IMG/VR virus record: IMGVR_UViG_3300042868_008486
Location: 1 to 44,809 of that record
DNA: 44,809 nt
Direction: 5' to 3' (one strand)
Source of the DNA: a virus
Lineage: Duplodnaviria > Heunggongvirae > Uroviricota > Caudoviricetes
Shown: piece after piece, positions 8,286-35,647 of the stretch
How positions within the stretch are numbered: position 1 is the first letter of the stretch
Layout of the letters: each line of letters begins with the position of its first letter
The notes under the pieces: model-generated
Told to the model about the DNA's origin: nothing
Seen by the model: the letters and a program-made list of their open reading frames with translations, nothing else
Databases searched by the model: none
Position numbers and translations under genes: made by a program

Positions 8286-8352
8286 AACATTAAGTTTTAT
8301 GTTACGAAGATATATAAATTTTGGGGAAAAACATACGGAATAGAAAAAAAAG

Positions 8353-8459
8353 TTATTAATACAGGATTCGAACCTGTGAGTCCCCGTGTATAGGTATCAT
8401 ACATACCACATTCCCGGACTTTATGTATGCTCAACCTTAAGCCACTCGGTCAATTAATT
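8353..8459 (-). ncRNA. tRNA-like RNA with expanded, non-canonical anticodon region
   Basis: D arm ACCGAGTGGCTTAAGGT, T arm ACAGG-TTCGAAT-CCTGT, AT-rich acceptor; central CATACATA/TATGTATG stem with 16-nt loop. Confidence 0.55.
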
Positions 8460-8673
8460 AACCACCCCTGAGATTACGGGGTGTAGATGTCCTCAGTTTT
8501 TCTTATACAAAACCCAACGCGTCTTACCGCTTAAAAATCAACCATTACGTCGGAGTGAGGATGGTGTTCCACACTATTAGCCCAACGACCCCCTTTACAA
8601 ATCCTAATGAGGTATCAGATATATCATTGTTTAAGTAACGATACCAAATCTAGTGAGTTTCTCGAACTCATTG

Positions 8674-8748
8674 TGGAGACAGTGGGAATCGAACCCACCA
8701 CACGGTGATTGCAAATCATCATCGCCACGCCTTGGAACATTTGCCCCC
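8674..8748 (-). tRNA. trnA: tRNA-Ala(TGC)
   Basis: Cloverleaf, loop TT-TGC-AA, G3:U70, A73. Confidence 0.9.
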
Positions 8749-8860
8749 AAATTTAGACAACAGGTAATACTCACATTTATTATTACCTAACTCAACGACC
8801 TCTGCAGTTGTGAATCTGTTTTAAAGGTTTTCCTCGGTGAAGAGTTTGTTGTCTATTTTT

Positions 8861-9019
8861 TTATTTGAAAGACTTTGATTGGTCCTCCCTATTTAATTCT
8901 TTCTCAATGTAGATATTGACCATATGTATTAGTGTGTCAGAATCAATATCAATTGTTTGACTTTCCTTACTTTCTTTCAGAAACGGAAAGATATTTTTAA
9001 AATACTCCTCGAATTTCAT
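8861..9019 (-). CDS. small hypothetical protein (52 aa, MKFEEYFKNIF)
   Basis: Read manually; follows upstream ORF directly. Confidence 0.5.
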   Translation of the reverse strand: MKFEEYFKNIFPFLKESKESQTIDIDSDTLIHMVNIYIEKELNREDQSKSFK

Positions 9020-9023
9020 TTTA

Positions 9024-9356
9024 TTATAACTTTATAAATGTTTCATTTTTGATTGATTTACTAATCCATCTTGCTAATTCAGAACCTCTTATTTCCGAAT
9101 TGAAAGAAGTTGTCCCAAGGTCTTCAGATAATGTTGTGACCACATCTGACTCCTTAACTTTCGCACCAACTTCTAATGTTGATACATTATGTGTGACCTT
9201 TACATCAACTGTTGAAATTGGAAACTCGTACATATCACCAAAAACCTCAATCTTGTAATACAAATTACCTGCAATATAGTGACTAAATTTAGCCATTGCT
9301 TTAGACTTCATTAAGTCTTTTTTAATTTCAGTTTCGTTTAACTCAATTGTAACCAT
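9024..9356 (-). CDS. hypothetical protein
   Basis: ORF within tRNA array; start uncertain. Confidence 0.65.
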   Translation of the reverse strand: MVTIELNETEIKKDLMKSKAMAKFSHYIAGNLYYKIEVFGDMYEFPISTVDVKVTHNVSTLEVGAKVKESDVVTTLSEDLGTTSFNSEIRGSELARWISKSIKNETFIKL

Positions 9357-9663
9357 TTTCCAATTTCCATTTATTATGTAATTCATTTATTGTGTGATAA
9401 GGACTACCTACACCTTCATAAATCTCATCAAAACCATTTTCTTTAGTAATAACAGATTCTTCAGCTTTAATTGCCCCCCTATATTTATCCCCGTAACTTC
9501 CTTGAACTGTTTTTGTTGCCGGGTCAATATCACCCCAAGATGCTCTCCAACTTCTTGGTTCAATATATTCTACGAAATATTGTTTACCTGTTTCAGGAAA
9601 TACAACAATTTCTTTTCCTGTTTCGTCTCGATTTACTAAGAAATCTCTTTTTACATCTTCCAT
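9343..9663 (-). CDS. hypothetical protein
   Basis: 106-aa ORF within tRNA array. Confidence 0.75.
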   Translation of the reverse strand: MEDVKRDFLVNRDETGKEIVVFPETGKQYFVEYIEPRSWRASWGDIDPATKTVQGSYGDKYRGAIKAEESVITKENGFDEIYEGVGSPYHTINELHNKWKLENGYN

Positions 9664-9692
9664 AACTGACTGTTATACTGTTTATTTTATTG

Positions 9693-9765
9693 AGCGGGTG
9701 GGGGGAATCGAACCCTCGTCCTTAGATTGGAAGTCTAATATAATAAGCCACTATACGACACCCGC
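9693..9765 (-). tRNA. trnG: tRNA-Gly(TCC)
   Basis: TTAGA-CT-TCC-AA-TCTAA, GCG start, U73. Confidence 0.93.
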
Positions 9766-9851
9766 AATTTGGGTAGAATCAGACGCGTTCTGTCTACCGA
9801 GACCTCGACGTTGTACTATGTTTCAAGTCAGAGCGTACCGAGACACTATTG

Positions 9852-9931
9852 TGAACCTGGAGGGAGTCGAACCCTCAATCCTAAAAATCGCGGCTTAAAC
9901 ACGACGCGTATACCAATTTCGCCACAGGTCC
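9852..9931 (-). tRNA. trnL: tRNA-Leu(TAA)
   Basis: TCGTG-TT-TAA-GC-CGCGA; 11-nt variable region. Confidence 0.88.
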
Positions 9932-9937
9932 TTTTTG

Positions 9938-10010
9938 TACCCCTACAGGGATTCTAACCCCGATTAAACCCTTAGAAGGGGTTGGTCCTATACAGTTGAA
10001 CGATAGGGGC
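9938..10010 (-). tRNA. trnR: tRNA-Arg(TCT)
   Basis: AACCC-CT-TCT-AA-GGGTT; variant T loop TTAGAAT. Confidence 0.85.
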
Positions 10011-10019
10011 GAATTATTG

Positions 10020-10091
10020 CGGACTATGTAGGATTCGAACCTACGACCTATCCGTTAACAGCGGAGTGCTCTACCACTGAGCTAATAGTCC
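10020..10091 (-). tRNA. trnN: tRNA-Asn(GTT)
   Basis: CTCCG-CT-GTT-AA-CGGAT, G73. Confidence 0.93.
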
Positions 10092-10103
10092 ATTTAATTG
10101 TTG

Positions 10104-10176
10104 AGGTCCCTAACGGATTCGAACCGTTATCCCTGGGTTACAAAGCCAGAATAATAAGCCATTATACTAAGAGACC
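10104..10176 (-). tRNA. trnT: tRNA-Thr(TGT)
   Basis: CTGGC-TT-TGT-AA-CCCAG (C31:C39 mismatch). Confidence 0.88.
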
Positions 10177-10319
10177 AATTAAGAGTGTTATTAATTCGTT
10201 TTACCTAAGACCGCGAATCCACGTAAAACTCAACTTCACCAATATTTTTACTGCAGTTCCAATATTGTCACATTGCTACTATATTGAACTAATAACTACG
10301 AATTACCCATCATAATTTC

Positions 10320-10392
10320 ACCATCGTTAGGGCTCGAACCTAAAGCTTCCGACTCCACGTCAGATGTGTTGACCAATTTACACCACTAGTTA
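10320..10392 (-). ncRNA. degenerate tRNA-like element (TGG-centred loop lacking U33, acceptor poorly paired)
   Basis: D arm GTGT-AAATTGGTCA-ACAC, T arm TTAGG-TTCGAGC-CCTAA. Confidence 0.5.
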
Positions 10393-10423
10393 CTTAGATT
10401 GACAAATAATTGTTTTTCTCTTT

Positions 10424-10498
10424 GCTGAATAATAAGGGTTCGAACCTTAATCTGAAATCCGTATTACCATCATCCGTGCTCCATTACACTATATCCAA
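10424..10498 (-). ncRNA. degenerate tRNA-like element without a clear anticodon arm
   Basis: D arm GTGT-AATGGA-GCAC, T arm TAAGG-TTCGAAC-CCTTA, weak acceptor stem. Confidence 0.45.
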
Positions 10499-10547
10499 TC
10501 GACAGTTTCGAACCTGTCATATAAAGGGTTATAACTCCTTTATTTTG

Positions 10548-10619
10548 CGGTCTATGCGAGAATCGAACTCGCGGCACATCCGTGACAGGGATGTATGTTA
10601 GCCACTACACCAATAGACC
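10548..10619 (-). tRNA. trnD: tRNA-Asp(GTC)
   Basis: CATCC-CT-GTC-AC-GGATG, G73. Confidence 0.93.
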
Positions 10620-10810
10620 ATAATAAAAACAAGTTTTTCGTGACCTTTACACATCATAACCAATTTTACTCGGTGATTACATTTTCGTCATTGGGGTAGC
10701 TAATCCCCGACTTATAGTAATTCTACCCTCAATACTTTACTATCGCGAATCAAGTACCATCTTGGGATTTATAGACAGTGAGGGTTTACTCACCGTCTTC
10801 ACTTGTTTAG

Positions 10811-10882
10811 TAGCGGGTACAGGATTCGAACCTGTGTCTTTGGGTTATGAGCCCAACGGGGTGACCACTCCCCCAACCCGCG
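10811..10882 (-). tRNA. trnfM: tRNA-fMet(CAT), initiator
   Basis: C1:U72 mismatch, GGG/CCC anticodon stem. Confidence 0.9.
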
Positions 10883-10887
10883 ATATG

Positions 10888-10964
10888 AATTACCCATAGG
10901 ACTCGAACCTACAACCCTTCGCCCTTTTGAGCGATGTGCAAACCAATTTACACCATAAGTAATT
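10888..10964 (-). ncRNA. tRNA-like RNA with a 4-nt AAAA loop replacing the anticodon loop
   Basis: D arm GTGT-AAATTGGTTT-GCAC, TCGCTC-AAAA-GGGCGA, T arm GTAGG-TTCGAGT-CCTAT, paired ends. Confidence 0.6.
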
Positions 10965-11059
10965 AATCAAGAACAATAAACAGAAATTAGTGTCGACAAA
11001 TTTCCTTAGGCAATATGTTTATTTTCTTGTTAGGGTTCGGTTAATTACTCCGACCTTTG

Positions 11060-11133
11060 TATCGCGTACGGGATTCGAACCCGTGATTTTCACCTTGAAA
11101 GGGTGACGACTTAAACCTCTCGTCTAACGCGAC
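11060..11133 (-). tRNA. trnE: tRNA-Glu(TTC)
   Basis: TCACC-CT-TTC-AA-GGTGA. Confidence 0.93.
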
Positions 11134-11150
11134 ATTTTGTTTTTTCTATT

Positions 11151-11220
11151 CCGATATGTCAAAGACCTTTTGTTTTCTTTTGTCTTACAAATCTAATCAT
11201 TTTCTTTTGTTCTCACAAGC
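11151..11220 (-). promoter_or_regulatory. internal promoter (TAGATTTG) plus boxA-like GGTCTTTGACATATCGG
   Basis: Near-duplicate of the 11491-11559 cassette. Confidence 0.65.
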
Positions 11221-11243
11221 TCTTTGTGATATTTTTTTTTCTG

Positions 11244-11317
11244 TAGTTCAGAAGGGATTTGAACCCCCAACCTTGACGATATAAGCGTCCTGCTCTCACC
11301 TGTTGAGCTACTGAACC
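11244..11317 (-). tRNA. trnI: tRNA-Ile(TAT)
   Basis: GGACG-CT-TAT-AT-CGTCA, A73. Confidence 0.88.
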
Positions 11318-11322
11318 AAATA

Positions 11323-11400
11323 CGTTTCACGTTTTAGGCCAATTAAACTAACCGCCCGTCGTCACGGACAGTACCGGAGTCGAACCGATATGTGATAACG
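11323..11400 (-). ncRNA. circularly permuted tRNA-like RNA (T arm, closed acceptor stem, D arm; YrlA-like topology)
   Basis: ATCGG-TTCGACT-CCGGT, ACTGTCCGT-GACG-ACGGGCGGT, TA-GTTT-AATTGGCCTA-AAAC; ends CGTTATCAC/GTGAAACG pair. Confidence 0.75.
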
Positions 11401-11403
11401 AAG

Positions 11404-11477
11404 TACCCTTGGTGGGATTCGAACCCACAAAAAAATAGTTTCTAAAACTATCGTGTATACCTTTCCACCACAAGGGT
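11404..11477 (-). tRNA. trnL: tRNA-Leu(TAG), short variable loop
   Basis: ATAGT-TT-TAG-AA-ACTAT; variable region only T6. Confidence 0.88.
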
Positions 11478-11490
11478 ATCTACTTCTATT

Positions 11491-11559
11491 CCAATATGTC
11501 AATGAACTCTTGTTCTGTTTTGTCTTACAAATCTAATACTTTTATTTTGATTTGCCAAA
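11491..11559 (-). promoter_or_regulatory. promoter (TTTG...TAGATTTG) plus boxA-like GTTCATTGACATATTGG
   Basis: Bacteroidota -33/-7 boxes followed by rrn-leader-like motif. Confidence 0.7.
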
Positions 11560-11569
11560 CTTAGGTCAC

Positions 11570-11601
11570 AAAAAAAACCCCTCTCTTTTGGAGAAGGGTT
11601 T
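11570..11601 (-). terminator. attenuator-type terminator of leader A
   Basis: AAACCCTTCTC-CAAAA-GAGAGGGGTTT followed by T tract. Confidence 0.85.
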
Positions 11602-11624
11602 CATTTAAATTTTATCTTAATGAA

Positions 11625-11702
11625 TTAACACATCTTCTCCGATACACAAGGATTGTCTCCCTCCGTTCTCGCATTTAAAAGTATGTTATTCAAATTTTGC
11701 AT
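11625..11702 (-). CDS. leader peptide A (25 aa, MQNLNNILLNARTEGDNPCVSEKMC)
   Basis: Codons 3-17 are all read by tRNAs of the downstream block; contains GGAGAAG complementary to terminator arm. Confidence 0.8.
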   Translation of the reverse strand: MQNLNNILLNARTEGDNPCVSEKMC

Positions 11703-11787
11703 TGTGTTGTCTTTTTTATTAAATATATTGTACTTTTTGAAAAGTTCAATAGTTAGTGAAAAATTTTTAACAAATTGGTTTAGATTT

Positions 11788-12186
11788 TTAATTTTCAAGT
11801 ACTTCTTTAACAATTTTTGAAACTAAAGTATTGTCGGCTTTACCCTTATATACTTTATTGAAAGCACCCATCATTTTACCAACATTATCAATACCATCTT
11901 TTTTAAATGTTCTGATGATTGAACGGATACTAAATTCATCCATTAACTTTGGTAAATATGGTTTAATGTATTCTAATTCTTTTAAAGATTCATCAGTGTT
12001 TGTCTGTGTTAATGATTTTTCCATTTTCTTTAAAATAGAAAGAACTACCTCATCTGTCACACTAACACCTCTACCTTCTTCATTTTGGATTTCACCTTTT
12101 AGTACACCTAAAAAGTTTTTCTTTTCCATTTCTTTGTTTTTAAATGCCGTCATAAATTCGACATTAATTTGTTCTCTTAGTGACAT
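11788..12186 (-). CDS. GatB/YqeY domain protein
   Basis: MSLREQI...AFKNKE, KGEIQN, YLPKLM, GKMMG, GKAD. Confidence 0.85.
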   Translation of the reverse strand: MSLREQINVEFMTAFKNKEMEKKNFLGVLKGEIQNEEGRGVSVTDEVVLSILKKMEKSLTQTNTDESLKELEYIKPYLPKLMDEFSIRSIIRTFKKDGIDNVGKMMGAFNKVYKGKADNTLVSKIVKEVLEN

Positions 12187-12203
12187 AGTTATTTGTTTTT
12201 AAG

Positions 12204-12284
12204 TGGGTGCGGAGGGATTCGAACCCCCACGCGATTAAGACCTGAGCTACAATCAGGCGAGCCAGCCAATTGCTCAACACACCC
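12204..12284 (-). tRNA. trnY: tRNA-Tyr(GTA), divergent copy
   Basis: CCTGA-TT-GTA-GC-TCAGG, extended variable region. Confidence 0.82.
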
Positions 12285-12359
12285 ATAAAGAAAATATCGT
12301 AGATTGTCCTTCACAATTTAACGGCGGGTTTGAACTTAATCAACTCTCCTACGATATCT

Positions 12360-12445
<86 letters not shown>

Positions 12446-12471
12446 ATTATATGACAATTAATGTCATTTCG

Positions 12472-12543
12472 CGCACCACCAAGGACTCGAACCCTGACCA
12501 AATGGGTTGGAACCATTTATGCTAGCCATTACACCAATGATGC
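12472..12543 (-). tRNA. trnW: tRNA-Trp(CCA)
   Basis: AATGG-TT-CCA-AC-CCATT, G73. Confidence 0.9.
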
Positions 12544-12570
12544 GAATAATGAAATTTTTATATTTCATTG

Positions 12571-12644
12571 AGGACAGAGAGAGGTTCGAACTCCCGAATA
12601 ATGGGTTTGCAGCCCACCCCTTTAGACCACTCAGGCATCTGTCC
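12571..12644 (-). tRNA. trnC: tRNA-Cys(GCA)
   Basis: GTGGG-CT-GCA-AA-CCCAT, U73. Confidence 0.92.
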
Positions 12645-12840
12645 AATTTAATATTAAGTCGCGAGTAATCCATCTGTCGCTTATTACTAGAATCTTGTGG
12701 CTTACTTACTATAGTTCATACCGTTACCACTAGGAAACCCAACTTAATATCTTCGTACTAATTATTTTAGAGATTGGTTCCCGAAGGATTAAACCATCAC
12801 TTGTACTTCGTGTCAGGAGGTAAACCCCATATCTCTAATG

Positions 12841-12912
12841 TAGCCCCTGTAGGACTCGAACCTACACTATCTTGTATGTAAAACAAGTACTTCACCTTTA
12901 AGCTAAAGGGCT
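12841..12912 (-). tRNA. trnV: tRNA-Val(TAC)
   Basis: CTTGT-TT-TAC-AT-ACAAG. Confidence 0.9.
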
Positions 12913-12920
12913 AATTATTG

Positions 12921-12995
12921 TGACCCCGGTGAGAATCGAACTCACGACCCGTACATTAAAAGTGTACTGCTCTAAACCAACTGAGCTACGAAGTC
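12921..12995 (-). tRNA. trnK: tRNA-Lys(TTT)
   Basis: GTACA-CT-TTT-AA-TGTAC. Confidence 0.93.
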
Positions 12996-13118
12996 AAATT
13001 TGGAAGGTCACCACAAACACCTTCCACGGTGAGTATTTTAATGTCGTTTTGTCTAATTACACCTAAGTGTCATAGTCGCAGGTCTCACTTCACGACAAAC
13101 CCGATTGGTATTAAGTAG

Positions 13119-13192
13119 TCGGTACGGTAGGATTTGAACCTACGACCTTTCACGTATCAGGCGAATGCTCTTACCAGCTGAGCTACGTACCG
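13119..13192 (-). tRNA. trnI: tRNA-Ile(GAT)
   Basis: TTCGC-CT-GAT-AC-GTGAA. Confidence 0.92.
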
Positions 13193-13199
13193 TTATTTT

Positions 13200-13274
13200 T
13201 GGTCGGGGTAGCAGGTGTCGAACCTGCCGCCTCTTGGTCCCAAACCAAGCGTCTCACCCCAAGACTATACCCCG
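13200..13274 (-). tRNA. trnP: tRNA-Pro(TGG)
   Basis: CTTGG-TT-TGG-GA-CCAAG, C1:G72, encoded CCA. Confidence 0.92.
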
Positions 13275-13287
13275 TTTGTTTGTTTAA

Positions 13288-13320
13288 CAAAGATAAGTAA
13301 TCATTTTCATTCTCACAATA
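13288..13320 (-). promoter_or_regulatory. internal promoter (TATCTTTG)
   Basis: -7 box 13 nt upstream of tRNA-Pro. Confidence 0.55.
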
Positions 13321-13340
13321 CCTTAGTTAATTTTTTTTTG

Positions 13341-13412
13341 TATCGTTATCAGGACTCGAACCTGAACCCACACCTTATGAGAGTGTTGTGACTACCTTTA
13401 CACTATAACGAC
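13341..13412 (-). tRNA. trnM: tRNA-Met(CAT), elongator (Ile2 not excluded)
   Basis: ACACT-CT-CAT-AA-GGTGT; no initiator features. Confidence 0.8.
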
Positions 13413-13417
13413 GTTTG

Positions 13418-13505
13418 CGGAAGATGTAGGGTTCGAACCTACGCGTCATATTTCAGACCTACTTGTTTAGCAAACAAGCCTCTTTACCAATTTGAGTAAT
13501 CTTCC
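13418..13505 (-). tRNA. trnS: tRNA-Ser(GCT)
   Basis: CTTGT-TT-GCT-AA-ACAAG, long variable arm, G73. Confidence 0.93.
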
Positions 13506-13545
13506 AAAATACACCGACCTAGCTCGGTATCACACATCGGATACG

Positions 13546-13617
13546 TAGTCCCCCAAGGACTCGAACCTTGACATTATCGTCCGTAGCGATAGGTGCTATC
13601 CGTTACACCAAGGAACC
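13546..13617 (-). tRNA. trnR: tRNA-Arg(ACG)
   Basis: TATCG-CT-ACG-GA-CGATA. Confidence 0.92.
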
Positions 13618-13622
13618 AAATA

Positions 13623-13729
13623 ATAAGGTTGGAGACTTATAATCGACCATTATAAGGTTGGAGCCTTATAATCACCCATTATTAGGTCTGAACCTAATAT
13701 TCACCCATTATTAGGTTATAACCTTATAT
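13623..13729. repeat. about 4 tandem 29-bp palindromic units
   Basis: ATWAGG-N6-(C)CTWAT-AWTC..CCATT units starting at 13623, 13652, 13681, 13710. Confidence 0.85.
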
Positions 13730-13908
13730 TGAGTTTTTCTGTAGTGTTTCCAAGTTTTATACATTCTAACTTGATAACTCATTTTGTTTCCGTAGAAACT
13801 TATTCCTTCATCCCAATAAATTGGGTAAAAGTCATTAATCAATCTATTTCGGTATTCTCTACCATTTTGTGCTTTGTTCAGTTTTGCTCTGTTGATGTTT
13901 GTACTCAT
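13711..13908 (-). CDS. small basic hypothetical protein (MSTNINRAKLNK)
   Basis: 65-aa ORF inside tRNA array. Confidence 0.65.
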   Translation of the reverse strand: MSTNINRAKLNKAQNGREYRNRLINDFYPIYWDEGISFYGNKMSYQVRMYKTWKHYRKTQYKVIT

Positions 13909-13934
13909 AGTTGTGGTTTTTAACCTACAACTTG

Positions 13935-14150
13935 TCAAATTTTTTCTTCATTTTGTTTAATGTAATCTAATGCAATGTGTATCAAACCGTTGAGATATTG
14001 CCATTTCGGACTTGCGTTCGGATAATGACCGAATATCTCAACTAATTTTTCTTCTTGCCATTTCCTTTCACTAATGATTGGAGATAACCATCGACCATTT
14101 TCTAAGTCGGCATTTACAAATGTTTTTTCTGTCTCTGCGATTTCTAAGTT
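13935..14150 (-). pseudogene. start-less ORF remnant (LEIAETEKTF...KQNEEKI)
   Basis: 71 sense codons with protein-like composition, no ATG/GTG/TTG near the 5' end. Confidence 0.4.
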
Positions 14151-14164
14151 TTAAAAATTAATTG

Positions 14165-14239
14165 GGAGTATAGTGAGATTCGAACTCACCCTATTAGCAC
14201 CACAAACTAACGTGCTCGACCACTGACACTATATACTCC
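14165..14239 (-). tRNA. trnH: tRNA-His(GTG)
   Basis: TTAGT-TT-GTG-GT-GCTAA; G-1:C73. Confidence 0.92.
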
Positions 14240-14317
14240 ATAAAAACCCCACTTCATCGGATTAATGGACCGACTGCCATATCGGGAGTGGGGGTTTTCC
14301 CATCAGTAGGGACTCCG

Positions 14318-14390
14318 TGGGACAGGAGGGAATCGAACCCCCATTGCTTGTTCTTCAGACAAGTGCCTTGACCAACTTGGCAACTGACCC
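14318..14390 (-). tRNA. trnF: tRNA-Phe(GAA)
   Basis: CTTGT-CT-GAA-GA-ACAAG. Confidence 0.9.
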
Positions 14391-14496
14391 AAATATTTTC
14401 ATCAAATCACCGATTACCACAATTACGGTGAGACCTTCGGGAACTGCCGTCCCGTGTTTTCTTTTTACCCGTGGATTAAACTATTTGATGGGGTAG

Positions 14497-14571
14497 TTGT
14501 CCCGGCAGGAATCGAACCTGCGATATCCACATTCAAAGTGTGGTGGCTCTGCCAACGTCGCCTACAGGACA
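14497..14571 (-). tRNA. trnQ: tRNA-Gln(TTG)
   Basis: CCACA-CT-TTG-AA-TGTGG, U1:A72. Confidence 0.9.
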
Positions 14572-14578
14572 ATAATGG

Positions 14579-14704
14579 TTACTTACGTAACCTTTTGATT
14601 AATTTTCTCAACAACCTAAATTTTATTTTAACCTCTTTAGGTTGTTGTCTTAACATTACTCTACTTGACTCAAATGTTCCCGTCAATACTTCTCTTTTTT
14701 TCAT
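14579..14704 (-). CDS. small basic peptide (41 aa, MKKREVLTG)
   Basis: Read manually; fills gap between tRNA-Ser and tRNA-Gln. Confidence 0.4.
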   Translation of the reverse strand: MKKREVLTGTFESSRVMLRQQPKEVKIKFRLLRKLIKRLRK

Positions 14705-14719
14705 TTTACTTTTATTTTG

Positions 14720-14802
14720 CGGAAGACGAGGGAATCGAACCCCCAAAGCTTTTACACCCAGCCGCTTTCAAGGCGGTGTCCTCGTCCATTCGGGCGCCTT
14801 CC
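14720..14802 (-). tRNA. trnS: tRNA-Ser(TGA)
   Basis: ACCGC-CT-TGA-AA-GCGGC, long variable arm, G73. Confidence 0.92.
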
Positions 14803-14887: not shown

Positions 14888-14922
14888 AAAAAAAAACCCC
14901 CGAACTTTTGGTTCAGGGGTCT
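14888..14922 (-). terminator. attenuator-type terminator of leader B
   Basis: ACCCCTGAAC-CAAAA-GTTCGGGGGT followed by T tract. Confidence 0.85.
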
Positions 14923-14946
14923 TACTAAATTAATATACGTTTATAT

Positions 14947-15066
14947 TTAACTTAATATGTTTTCTGAACCATATGACGTGCTAAACCACATCGGATACGA
15001 TACGCTACACACGCGAATCTGTTTCGATGGACTTACTTGTTTAATATGTTGTTCAGTTGTTCTCAT
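14947..15066 (-). CDS. leader peptide B (39 aa, MRTTEQHIKQVSPSKQIRVCSVSYPMWFSTSYGSENILS)
   Basis: Not in ORF track; codons 6-29 all read by tRNAs of the downstream block; contains TGGTTCAG complementary to terminator arm. Confidence 0.8.
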   Translation of the reverse strand: MRTTEQHIKQVSPSKQIRVCSVSYPMWFSTSYGSENILS

Positions 15067-16725: not shown

Positions 16726-16826
16726 AAAACAAAGAGGTGTCTCTCGACACCTCGTTGCTAGATTTGGAACACCCCCTTTCTTTTAAAATGGTTTATTCCT
16801 TTCGGGTAACTATCCCGAAGGTAAGT

Positions 16827-18470
16827 TTAAGATAATGCTTTAGTTTTTAATGTATTAAAGACACCATCCATATTTCCACTAATTTTACTTAACGCTGGAC
16901 ATATTGCCGCTGCTAATCCTCGTTCTATTGATTGTGCAAAGTCTGAACTATCTAAACCTTGAACAATAGAATTTCTTAATATATCAAAGAAACCACCCGT
17001 CAATCCTGCATTATCTTTAACTTTATCTAACGCCTCTTCAGCGATTGATTTTGCTAATAATGGTGTTAAGTAATCACACGTTAATATTTTACCTGAAGTA
17101 TAATCACCAAGTGGTATATTTCCAATTGCTTTCACAATTGTACCGGCAACCCAACTATCTGTATTAATTCCCAATTTATTTAATAAGGTCTCAGCGATTT
17201 TTTCTTTAAAGTAACCTAAAATTCCTTCAGTTCCTAAACCAAACATACCTTTTAATGAATCCCATAATCCTTCAGATATTAATTTTGGTGATAAACCTAA
17301 ATTAACTAAATCAAATGATTCGTTAAATAATTCAGATACTGACTCTTTTTTCACTTTTGAAGACTCGGTAATCATTTTAAAACGTGCATTAATTATTTTA
17401 CTTTCTGTGACTAATGTTTTTTTTTTACTCTCAGATAACATTGATAATTTACCTTTGATGATTGATTTAAGAACATCGTCTTTAGACTCATTCATTCGTT
17501 GTTCGAATTTGTATCTTAAACCCCAACCACCATTGTTACGTTTCAAAAAGTTAATTTCATCTTCAATACCCATAATACCCCCTAAAAAGTTCATACCTTG
17601 GGTAGCACATTTATAAGCATAATCCCTAACAGTTTCAACTTCAGTAGCTCCTGCGGTTACAGGTACATTTTTCGATGCGTTTTTATATAATATTTTGATA
17701 GCTTTTCTACATTCATTTCTTGATATTTTTTGACCCTCTAAAGTTGCTGCTAATTCTTTTGCACTTGTTGCGGTCGCCCCTTTAACTGCTTGAGAACTTT
17801 TTTTCCAAACGACTAAATTTTTTGATGATTTTCCATTTTTTTGTAACACCTTATTAAATTCGTCAACAATATTTTCACCACCATTCTTAGTTAATATTGT
17901 TAACGCGTTACCTGTTAATGTGTATTCAGGTGTTCCATAAGGGGCTTCTGTAAATGTATATCCTATTTTATCAAAAAAGTTTTTAACATTTGGCATTTGG
18001 TCAATCCAATTATTTGTAATACCAACTGATTGGTAAATAAAATGTACCCCTTTTTCTGGAAACGTTTGAGAATTGATGGAGTTTAAGTCGACCGCTTTAT
18101 AAGTTCCTTTGTCTATTTCACCACGACCACCAGGAATATCTGATAATCTTTTATAACCTGTATTTTGTGCAAGTAACGCCTCTACAACCTTTTTTTGGTC
18201 AGGACCTAATGGTAAATCAATTTTACCTTTAACCGCTTCACAAGCACTATATGTACCTTCATTATTTAGTTTACCATTAGTACCATAAGCTTTATAAGTA
18301 AAATCATCATATAAAAACACAATACCTTTACCCGGTACACTTTGTCTTAACGCAGGTTTTTTAGTGTTTTCATCAGTAACCAATTGATAACCCTTCCAAC
18401 CACAATCACGTAATAATAACGTTAATGTTTCATTTTGGGTAGTTTCTTGTTCTTTTATAACTCGTTTCAT
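16827..18470 (-). CDS. hypothetical protein, probable virion/late protein
   Basis: 547 aa; many hydrophobic-x-E-S/G/Q motifs. Confidence 0.7.
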   Translation of the reverse strand: MKRVIKEQETTQNETLTLLLRDCGWKGYQLVTDENTKKPALRQSVPGKGIVFLYDDFTYKAYGTNGKLNNEGTYSACEAVKGKIDLPLGPDQKKVVEALLAQNTGYKRLSDIPGGRGEIDKGTYKAVDLNSINSQTFPEKGVHFIYQSVGITNNWIDQMPNVKNFFDKIGYTFTEAPYGTPEYTLTGNALTILTKNGGENIVDEFNKVLQKNGKSSKNLVVWKKSSQAVKGATATSAKELAATLEGQKISRNECRKAIKILYKNASKNVPVTAGATEVETVRDYAYKCATQGMNFLGGIMGIEDEINFLKRNNGGWGLRYKFEQRMNESKDDVLKSIIKGKLSMLSESKKKTLVTESKIINARFKMITESSKVKKESVSELFNESFDLVNLGLSPKLISEGLWDSLKGMFGLGTEGILGYFKEKIAETLLNKLGINTDSWVAGTIVKAIGNIPLGDYTSGKILTCDYLTPLLAKSIAEEALDKVKDNAGLTGGFFDILRNSIVQGLDSSDFAQSIERGLAAAICPALSKISGNMDGVFNTLKTKALS

Positions 18471-33508: not shown

Positions 33509-35647
33509 TCACCTCAATTTTATTTTCATTTTTGTACCTGTTTCATTTTTTTCACAAGTAATGGTAAAACCGTGTTCGTGTAAAATTGCGATACAAATAT
33601 TCAACCCCAAACCTGTTCCTGATTCTTTTTGACCTTCTTTTCTATGATATGGTTGTGATAGGTATTCGAATTCTGATTGAGTCATACCACGACCATTGTC
33701 CTGTAATGCTAAGTGGTTTTCGTCTTCCATATAGACCGCAACCACCTTATTATCCGAATCGTTATATTTTAAACCATTACGAATTAAATTATCAATTGCC
33801 GTACAAAATAGAGGTTCATTAACATCCAATGTTGGTAACCAATCAATTGCAACTTGACTTGAATATGCGGTGGATGTTAAGTATGAGTTTAAGATGTCTC
33901 TTAGATTTAAATTTTCTTTTGTTAATACAACATCTTGTTTAACTAAATTTGTAAATTCATAAACTCCCTTATAAACTTTCTGTGTATGTTTTAAACCTTC
34001 CTTCAACATTTTAAGTGGGGCTTCCAATTTTAATGTTTCAATATCTTCAGGTTTTAATCTTCGTTCTAACGAACTAATTCCTCTTGGGATGTATGTGTTT
34101 ATCCCTGAGTGCATATCGTGTCTTAGAATCTTCGCAGCGTGTTCTAAATATGTGTTTTTCTTTTCTATCTCTCTCTTTTGTTCATAAGAAGTTGTAATGT
34201 CTGTTGAAATTTTCATAACACGATAAACCTTACCATCAACACTAAGAATTGGGTTGTAAGTTGCTTGTAAATAAACTAAAGAACCATCTTTTTTAATTCT
34301 AATAATTTCACCTGAAAATGATAAACCATCTTTTAATTTTTCCCAAAAAATACGATACTCGTCACTTTTTGAATATTCTTCATCCACAAAAATTCTATGA
34401 TGATTTCCAATTACTTCAGCATTAGATGAATATCCCATAGTTTCTAAGAACAAATTATTGGCAAAAACGATATTACCTTCTAAATCAAATTCAATAACCG
34501 CATTAGATTTATTAATAGCATTCATTCTATTATGAATTTCTACTTCCTTTTTTTTAAGTTCAGTAACGTCTTGTCTAATTGACGTATAACCTTTTACTTT
34601 ACCGCTATCACTATCAAAATCGGCTTTAATATAGGTGTCAACCCAATATAATTCACCTTCTTTATTTTTATTGATAACTAAGTCATTCCAAATCCCACCT
34701 TTTTTAACGGTCTTATACATATTAGCCCAAAATTTCTTATCGTGAATTCCCGAATTAACAATATTATGGTCTTTACCTAAACACTCATCAAGACTCCAAC
34801 CTGAAACATCTTCAAATTTTTTATTAACGTAAACAATTTTACCTCTTTTATCTGTTTTACTGACCAAGACTGATGAGTCCACAAAATGTTCAAACTCACC
34901 TAATTCATTTTTAAGTTCATTACCTTCTTGAACTGAATAAGCAAATGAAAATAATGACGATAACATTTCGGCAAAATTTACTTCCACTTTATGCCATTCC
35001 CTAACCGTATAACTTTCAATACATATTACACCAATTACTTCACCTTTATAAACGATTGGAACGTCAAGCATTGCTCTAACACCTAATGGGTCTGAATAAG
35101 TTTCTTTAAAACATTGTGTTGATGGATGTAAATTAACATCATTTGCAATTATAATCGGATTTGTTTTAAGTCCATTGAAGTATGGTTTATAATCTTTTTC
35201 AAAAATCTCAATCCCGTTAACCCATTCACCTGTTTTTTTCTCATATAATTGTTCACACACAATACTTGTTTTTTTCTGGTTATATAACCAAATTGAACAT
35301 CTATCGGCACATACGCTATTTGTAACTTCTTTAGTTAATAATTTAGCACCTTCATTAACATTTCCCTCATAAAATAAATGATTGTGTGTTTGTGATATTA
35401 AAGTTTCATTTAAATTTCTTGCGTAATAATTCAATTTAATTGATTCTTTATTTTTTTTCACATAATCATAAATTATTTTGAAAAATAGGGGGATAAATAA
35501 AACAAAACAGATAAATTCAACCCACATTACTGAATTACATAGGGGTAGAATATTAAACACCACTAAAAGTTTTATTATCAAAAACATTGTCATCACAACG
35601 ACTGAGGTATAAAAAGAATATCGTGTGTTTTTTTCTAGTGATATCAT
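33509..35647 (-). CDS. sensor histidine kinase (TM-GAF-PAS-PAS-kinase)
   Basis: GAF (AMLDVPI..GVICIE), two PAS/PAC, H-box RHDM, N-box NLIRNGLKY, DNGRG, GTGLGL. Confidence 0.92.
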   Translation of the reverse strand: MISLEKNTRYSFYTSVVVMTMFLIIKLLVVFNILPLCNSVMWVEFICFVLFIPLFFKIIYDYVKKNKESIKLNYYARNLNETLISQTHNHLFYEGNVNEGAKLLTKEVTNSVCADRCSIWLYNQKKTSIVCEQLYEKKTGEWVNGIEIFEKDYKPYFNGLKTNPIIIANDVNLHPSTQCFKETYSDPLGVRAMLDVPIVYKGEVIGVICIESYTVREWHKVEVNFAEMLSSLFSFAYSVQEGNELKNELGEFEHFVDSSVLVSKTDKRGKIVYVNKKFEDVSGWSLDECLGKDHNIVNSGIHDKKFWANMYKTVKKGGIWNDLVINKNKEGELYWVDTYIKADFDSDSGKVKGYTSIRQDVTELKKKEVEIHNRMNAINKSNAVIEFDLEGNIVFANNLFLETMGYSSNAEVIGNHHRIFVDEEYSKSDEYRIFWEKLKDGLSFSGEIIRIKKDGSLVYLQATYNPILSVDGKVYRVMKISTDITTSYEQKREIEKKNTYLEHAAKILRHDMHSGINTYIPRGISSLERRLKPEDIETLKLEAPLKMLKEGLKHTQKVYKGVYEFTNLVKQDVVLTKENLNLRDILNSYLTSTAYSSQVAIDWLPTLDVNEPLFCTAIDNLIRNGLKYNDSDNKVVAVYMEDENHLALQDNGRGMTQSEFEYLSQPYHRKEGQKESGTGLGLNICIAILHEHGFTITCEKNETGTKMKIKLR

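Follow-up and report, generated by a model that had tools for sequence, protein, structure and literature searches.

The window analysed here is the stretch of 44,809 nucleotides with which the virus record IMGVR_UViG_3300042868_008486 begins, a linear sequence of 186.8 kb with 32% G+C that is about 64% complete. Its minus strand carries an array of 26 tRNA genes, 24 of which are called by ARAGORN/Rfam at default thresholds and two, Ser-TGA and Ala-TGC, at a relaxed threshold. Downstream of the array are located genes for two RNA ligases and a phosphoesterase, a cREC gene, and a SLOG gene. The phage furthermore encodes a sigma-70-type factor and a histidine kinase of the GAF-PAS type (window 33509-35647, minus strand). 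Two hairpins (16780-16830, minus strand) follow a 547-aa gene upstream of the tRNA array, and far from the main array, at G000:C1:118353-122640 (minus strand), further tRNA-like calls with low scores (Pro-TGG, CTA, Tyr-GTA) form a second cluster. A search of INPHARED found no close cultured relatives of the phage. The main elements of the locus are the following:

8673-11477, minus strand: tRNA block A, consisting of Leu-TAG, Ile-TAT, Glu, initiator Met, Asp, Thr, Asn, Arg-TCT, Leu-TAA, Gly-TCC, and Ala-TGC (ARAGORN, Rfam; Ala at the relaxed threshold)
11625-11702, minus strand: leader A open reading frame (ORF) of 25 codons, putatively translated
11788-12186, minus strand: YqeY-family gene between block B and leader A (PF09424, E 7.7e-17)
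12203-14802, minus strand: tRNA block B, comprising the other 14 decoding classes
14888-14923, minus strand: terminator of leader B
14947-15066, minus strand: leader B ORF of 39 codons, the partner cassette

Nine elongator tRNAs of block A (Leu-TAG, Ile-TAT, Glu, Asp, Thr, Asn, Arg-TCT, Leu-TAA, and Gly-TCC) are called by both ARAGORN and Rfam. Ala-TGC (8673-8748), which bears G3:U70 and A73, is called at the relaxed threshold only; it shares 96% identity with the Ala-TGC of the related phage G026, which sits within the block A of that phage directly after Gly. An assignment of this tRNA-like sequence to a tmRNA, considered because of its low ARAGORN and Rfam scores, was set aside in view of its clean TGC loop and of homologs that are called Ala at 87-96% identity. 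If one U34 (or A34) tRNA is assumed to read an entire four-codon box, the code has 24 decoding classes, of which block A supplies 10 and block B the other 14, with none in common. The low-scoring calls Arg-ACG (10424-10497) and Leu-CAA (10887-10963) were treated as non-decoding, the homologs of the latter varying in the anticodon loop. This RNA at 10887-10963 (minus strand) has a body that is 87-90% identical in L010, L023-L025, L044, and L123, with an anticodon loop that differs from lineage to lineage, and is probably non-decoding. Further tRNA-like elements are found within block A at 11321-11400, 10319-10392, and 10424-10497 (all minus strand; homologs of 77-87% in related phages), and another one with an expanded anticodon arm at 8351-8460 (minus strand) is conserved at 91-97% in G026 and G030 as well as in G011, which is more distant. 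Immediately upstream of tRNA-Arg-ACG, positions 13620-13735 contain short repeats, both direct and inverted.

Leader A can be resolved into the following parts:

11652-11696, minus strand: sensing window, codons 3-17, which contain all ten decoding classes of block A
11678-11692, minus strand: region 1, 5' strand of a predicted protector hairpin, which pairs with the 3' end of the ORF (fold)
11634-11640, minus strand: region 2, antiterminator strand GGAGAAG, predicted to form a duplex of -12.1 kcal/mol with the 5' arm of the terminator
11570-11602, minus strand: intrinsic terminator (regions 3:4) with a tract of 8 T, predicted at -15.1 kcal/mol

A preliminary description of this DNA had proposed that codons 3-17 sample every elongator tRNA of block A, and re-reading of the sequence returned the same codons, which represent exactly the ten block A decoding classes. 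The same description had the tail of the leader switch almost wholly to block B codons, and seven of the eight tail codons are indeed of this kind. A window of 13 codons, which begins at codon 5 and stops 11 nt short of the antiterminator, contains exactly the 10 block A classes of the 24, for which the chance is 1/C(24,10) = 5.1e-7 under random partition and 4.0e-7 when calculated from the codon usage of the genome; leader A is the sole fit among the 373,582 windows of 13 codons in the six frames of the genome. In the sensing window of leader B, 24 of 24 codons match block B and all 14 of its classes are covered. The match extends to the level of isoacceptors, as leader A contains ATA and AGA together with Ile-TAT and Arg-TCT in its block and leader B contains ATT and CGC together with Ile-GAT and Arg-ACG.

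For comparison, about 100 loci of IMG/VR were fetched via the neighbouring YqeY gene and the leader pattern, 48 of which were extended. A search by layout only (short ORF, terminator, tRNA downstream), in which codon content was not used, yielded 71 distinct leader-terminator cassettes ahead of tRNA blocks in related IMG/VR phages. When the pattern of leader A, which represents this one family only, was searched in 185,579 cellular genomes, seven matches were obtained, none with a leader ORF or tRNA genes at the locus. The relatives also bear on an alternative in which the match to block A is due to chance: the ORF would specify either a short peptide with a function of its own or the end of a 62-aa protein, and the terminator behind it would be an ordinary one. 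An in-frame TTG is indeed present 37 codons upstream in this phage, and the first five residues of leader A are conserved in 17 homologs. A conserved 62-aa product had been named in the preliminary description as speaking against its own reading, but in the 29 leader A contexts inspected, this ORF is not conserved: an upstream in-frame start is found in only nine, at scattered positions, and in seven an in-frame stop lies within 7 codons, so that the longer ORF was rejected. The ATG of leader A, in turn, is invariant among the 17 homologs, and the indels in the coding region are multiples of three. As the peptide varies with the tRNA block and not independently, and a chance match has a probability of 5e-7, this explanation is close to refuted and we consider it extremely improbable.

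The tRNA set is divided differently among the lineages, and the leader codons follow the division. In 17 genomes with both leaders, the placement of a class in a tRNA block and in a leader was concordant in 304 of 308 unambiguous cases, with the offset fixed at 23 nt for every B leader. Of the four disagreements, three involve CAT tRNAs, which were probably misread as Ile by the script. Another sub-lineage has Thr, Asn, Leu-TAG, and Arg-TCT, all members of block A here, in its block B, and in every case counted the codons have moved along. In G005, Arg-TCT alone has moved to block A, and in G040, a third type, Thr and Leu-TAG are in A and Asn and Arg-TCT in B, with leaders that match. The concordant arrangements in the leader A lineage thus number four, the genomes inside each being related and not separate counts. 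A further lineage possesses four blocks (Pro/Gln/Tyr/Thr/Gly/Lys; Cys/Val/Leu; Phe/Glu/Asp/Ala; Ser/His/Trp/Ile/Met/Asn/Arg), whose leader cores are, in the order of the blocks, TYQTQYQPKGGK, VVLLVLCLL, FDFAFFAAEADE, and HMISISNWRRN. Pooled P values overstate the association, because the phage sequences are related and not independent of each other, and the fair test is the one at the family level: with 12 representatives, one per family, 11 windows fit their own block best and 0 of 1,000,000 permutations reach the observed score, the A and B families in this test still being related to each other. The comparison across phages that had been suggested for the leaders thus came out in favour of codons that co-vary with block content. 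Two loci, L006 and L012 (G002 and G006), contain one leader of 37 codons ahead of one very long tRNA block. In L113 (G030), a CAT tRNA occupies the slot of Ile-TAT (11243-11317 here) and the leader retains ATA, which suggests a switch between Ile-TAT and a lysidine-type Ile-CAT.

A leader of this type might also sense amino-acid starvation or general translation stress, the tRNA species having no special part. A stalled ribosome does not distinguish an uncharged tRNA from a missing one, as established for classical attenuators, which counts for this possibility. The Anabaena trn operon, moreover, reacts to general translational stress (PMC8421152). However, the codon match at the level of isoacceptors (ATA/AGA in leader A, ATT/CGC in leader B) and the presence of AGA in the leader A of G005, where Arg-TCT is in block A, argue against it, and separate leaders with disjoint codon sets would be needless for a general sensor; we regard a general sensor as improbable.

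The intrinsic terminator is located between the stop codon of leader A and the first tRNA gene. GGAGAAG (11640-11634) and CTTCTCC (11596-11590), between which an alternative pairing had been postulated, are both present and complementary, and the distances given for them are right: the antiterminator begins 11 nt after codon 17 and lies 6-13 nt ahead of the stop. In the fold of the first 82 nt, a protector hairpin (1:2) of -21.2 kcal/mol is predicted. Among the 17 homologs, the antiterminator helix is paired in 99.3% of the cells, and the one pair that varies freely changes on both sides (UA, GC, AU); unrelated leader families use other complementary words for the antiterminator. In 53 leaders, 18 of the 71 being left out because automatic detection of the antiterminator failed there, the share of own-block codons lies at 0.79-0.94 in the stretch that begins 33 nt and ends 9 nt ahead of the antiterminator; beyond it, the values are 0.51, 0.40, and 0.26, with 0.35 expected. 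With this edge at 9 nt, the distance from the last matched codons to the antiterminator strand corresponds to one ribosome footprint. When an assumed ribosome footprint is masked in the fold, the predicted probability of the antiterminator is about 1 for an A-site up to codon 17 and 0 from codon 19. At equilibrium, the full-length RNA is predicted to favour the terminator (-15.1 vs -12.1 kcal/mol) even when a stalled ribosome is included, and the switch must therefore be kinetic, the choice being made during transcription. The sensing windows of the 53 leaders, which are related sequences, favour codons that are rare in phage genes (GGC 0.39 vs 0.01, ACG 0.47 vs 0.08, CCG 0.61 vs 0.09, GAG 0.83 vs 0.27); slow wobble reading, host tRNA preference, or RNA structure may be responsible for this preference.

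It is highly probable, in our judgement, that leader A is a trp-type ribosome-coupled transcription attenuator which senses the decoding of the codons of its own tRNA block. The codon-block co-variation, the boundary one footprint before the antiterminator, and the compensatory pairing of the antiterminator support this reading, which had been put forward in the preliminary description. Sequence and comparison support the codon-block match, its co-variation, the boundary, and the alternative pairings; from there we infer translation of leader A, stalling, read-through, and the trigger. Transcription would start about 20-25 nt upstream of the ATG of leader A. With block A tRNAs in ample, charged supply, the ribosome would pass codon 18 and cover GGAGAAG, and the terminator would form. 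If instead any one of the ten is in short supply, uncharged, or cut, the ribosome would linger in codons 3-17, leaving GGAGAAG free to pair with the 5' arm of the terminator, and RNA polymerase would read into the tRNA genes, which are those that relieve the delay. Leader B would act in the same way for the other 14 classes. The likeliest trigger would be cleavage or depletion of host tRNAs during infection. Because most control codons are single and not in tandem as in the trp and his leaders, the delay per codon may be small. Read-through to tRNA-Ala, which the preliminary description had implied, is plausible because no strong terminator is predicted between leader A and Ala, and a transcript of this extent is also compatible with the position of Ala within block A of G026. 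No terminator is predicted after the YqeY-family gene either, and thus block B transcripts may run into attenuator A.

The attenuator is accompanied by several promoter-like elements:

11720-11749, minus strand: putative leader A promoter of the TTG-ACTTTT...TATATTTA class, largely invariant in the 17 aligned leader A homologs
11528-11558, minus strand: putative Bacteroidota-type promoter, TTTG-20 nt-TAGATTTG, downstream of the terminator
11492-11507, minus strand: boxA-like motif GTTCATTGACATATTG, one mismatch from a motif 88 nt upstream of a Flavobacterium subsaxonicum 16S rRNA gene
11152-11218, minus strand: putative second internal promoter with a boxA-like copy before tRNA-Glu, in a 78-nt repeat 82% identical to 11484-11561

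The motif ATATTTAW is common to the upstream regions of the leaders and occurs within 45 nt upstream of 46 of the 318 genes of the genome, about tenfold more often than the approximately 5 expected. The consensus promoter and the boxA-like motif between the terminator and the first tRNA were absent from the preliminary description. As promoters of the form TTTG-N20-TAnnTTTG are present and the motif also occurs 88 nt before a Flavobacterium 16S gene, we infer a host among the Bacteroidota. With host-type promoters located after the terminator, the attenuator probably has only partial control over block A in this phage. It would be reasonable to assign basal or early tRNA expression to these promoters and a demand-driven increment to the attenuator. 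The two promoters could also swamp the effect of the attenuator here. On a rival reading, the attenuator is real in the lineage but for the most part circumvented in this phage, where the promoters at 11558 and 11218 would make block A constitutive and leave leader A minor or vestigial. This would be compatible with the attenuator mechanism, as it concerns the copy of this phage only. In favour of such a bypass, each of the internal promoters fits TTTG-20 nt-TAnnTTTG and has a boxA-like motif behind it, and such a promoter is present after the terminator in 24 of 76 related cassettes. In the other 52, none was matched, and 38 of the 76 combine this lack of a promoter match with a first tRNA that begins no more than 60 nt from the U tract. 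Leader A, however, is undecayed, with sensing window, antiterminator, and terminator intact in the phage and its three closest relatives; G027, which has the same leader type, contains no promoter match and its first tRNA begins 32 nt past the U tract; and the leader promoter belongs to a different class, so that, with a sigma-70-type factor encoded by the phage, the two may act at different times. We therefore view a bypass to this extent as unlikely.

The phage would probably make more block A tRNAs when ribosomes read their codons slowly. The question why phages carry tRNAs has been open for more than 50 years (PMC10264068). A sensor that switches on tRNA genes upon slow reading of their own codons would mean that phage tRNAs answer a conditional shortage, as expected from tRNA depletion or cleavage, and not a fixed codon bias, and their role would become testable with a 130-nt reporter. 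Ribosome-coupled attenuation would thereby be extended to tRNA genes and to viruses, with a single leader integrating 10-16 signals; the sensor would also lend itself to use as a ready codon-resolved biosensor for defences that target tRNAs. Whether these phages carry a complete codon-indexed monitor of the tRNA pool of the cell, composed of two to four attenuators that between them sample the decoding classes, each release the block able to mend the fault detected, and together form an inducible counter to tRNA-cleaving defences of the host, is a matter on which we see the chances as evenly balanced.

In the literature searched, which most subscription papers lay outside, no published account of attenuators on tRNA genes was found. 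Several known systems share individual properties with leader A. Multivalent attenuators control amino-acid operons of enterobacteria, such as thrL (Thr, Ile) and the ilvGMEDA leader (Ile, Leu, Val). Leader A shares with them a short leader ORF, control codons one footprint before the antiterminator, a protector hairpin (predicted in leader A), an intrinsic terminator, and leader codons tied to what the operon supplies. In contrast to them, it is found in a phage, regulates tRNAs and not biosynthetic enzymes, contains ten classes, mostly once each, and not two or three classes in tandem runs, and matches isoacceptors. The leader pheL has also been described (PMC3082878). None of the leader families of Rfam reaches threshold on leader A, which works like the thr and ilvGMEDA attenuators and is not a member of those families. 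The pheM attenuator of Escherichia coli pheST is an example of ribosome-coupled control of the translation machinery by one charged tRNA. Leader A would likewise represent ribosome-coupled attenuation of a part of this machinery, but pheM responds to one amino acid and the product under its control is a synthetase, whereas the genes behind leader A are those of the tRNAs themselves. T-box riboswitches bind one uncharged tRNA directly, without translation; they resemble leader A in the control of a terminator and antiterminator by tRNA status with codon-level specificity, but Rfam gives no T-box match at leader A and a conserved ORF is found there instead. Nearest in purpose is the Anabaena trn operon, a long tRNA array linked with RNA-repair genes as in the phage, which is switched on under translational stress (PMC8421152, PMC10272220). 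Unlike leader A, it is controlled at promoter direct repeats and by the repressor TrcR, as one operon with no codon-specific sensing, and the terms "attenuat" and "leader" are absent from the text of PMC8421152. Finally, phage tRNAs counter tRNA-cleaving immunity, and T6 escapes Septu through amplification of its tRNA-Tyr gene, as can be taken from the abstracts of PMC10264068, PMC11555353, and PMC13096335, in which, as in a term search of PMC10264068, no sensor or attenuator is mentioned. Counter-defence provides a reason to raise tRNA output on demand, with the difference from leader A that the dosage is raised there by gene amplification, and since phage tRNAs counter tRNA-cleaving defences, such defences are a likely trigger for the attenuator.
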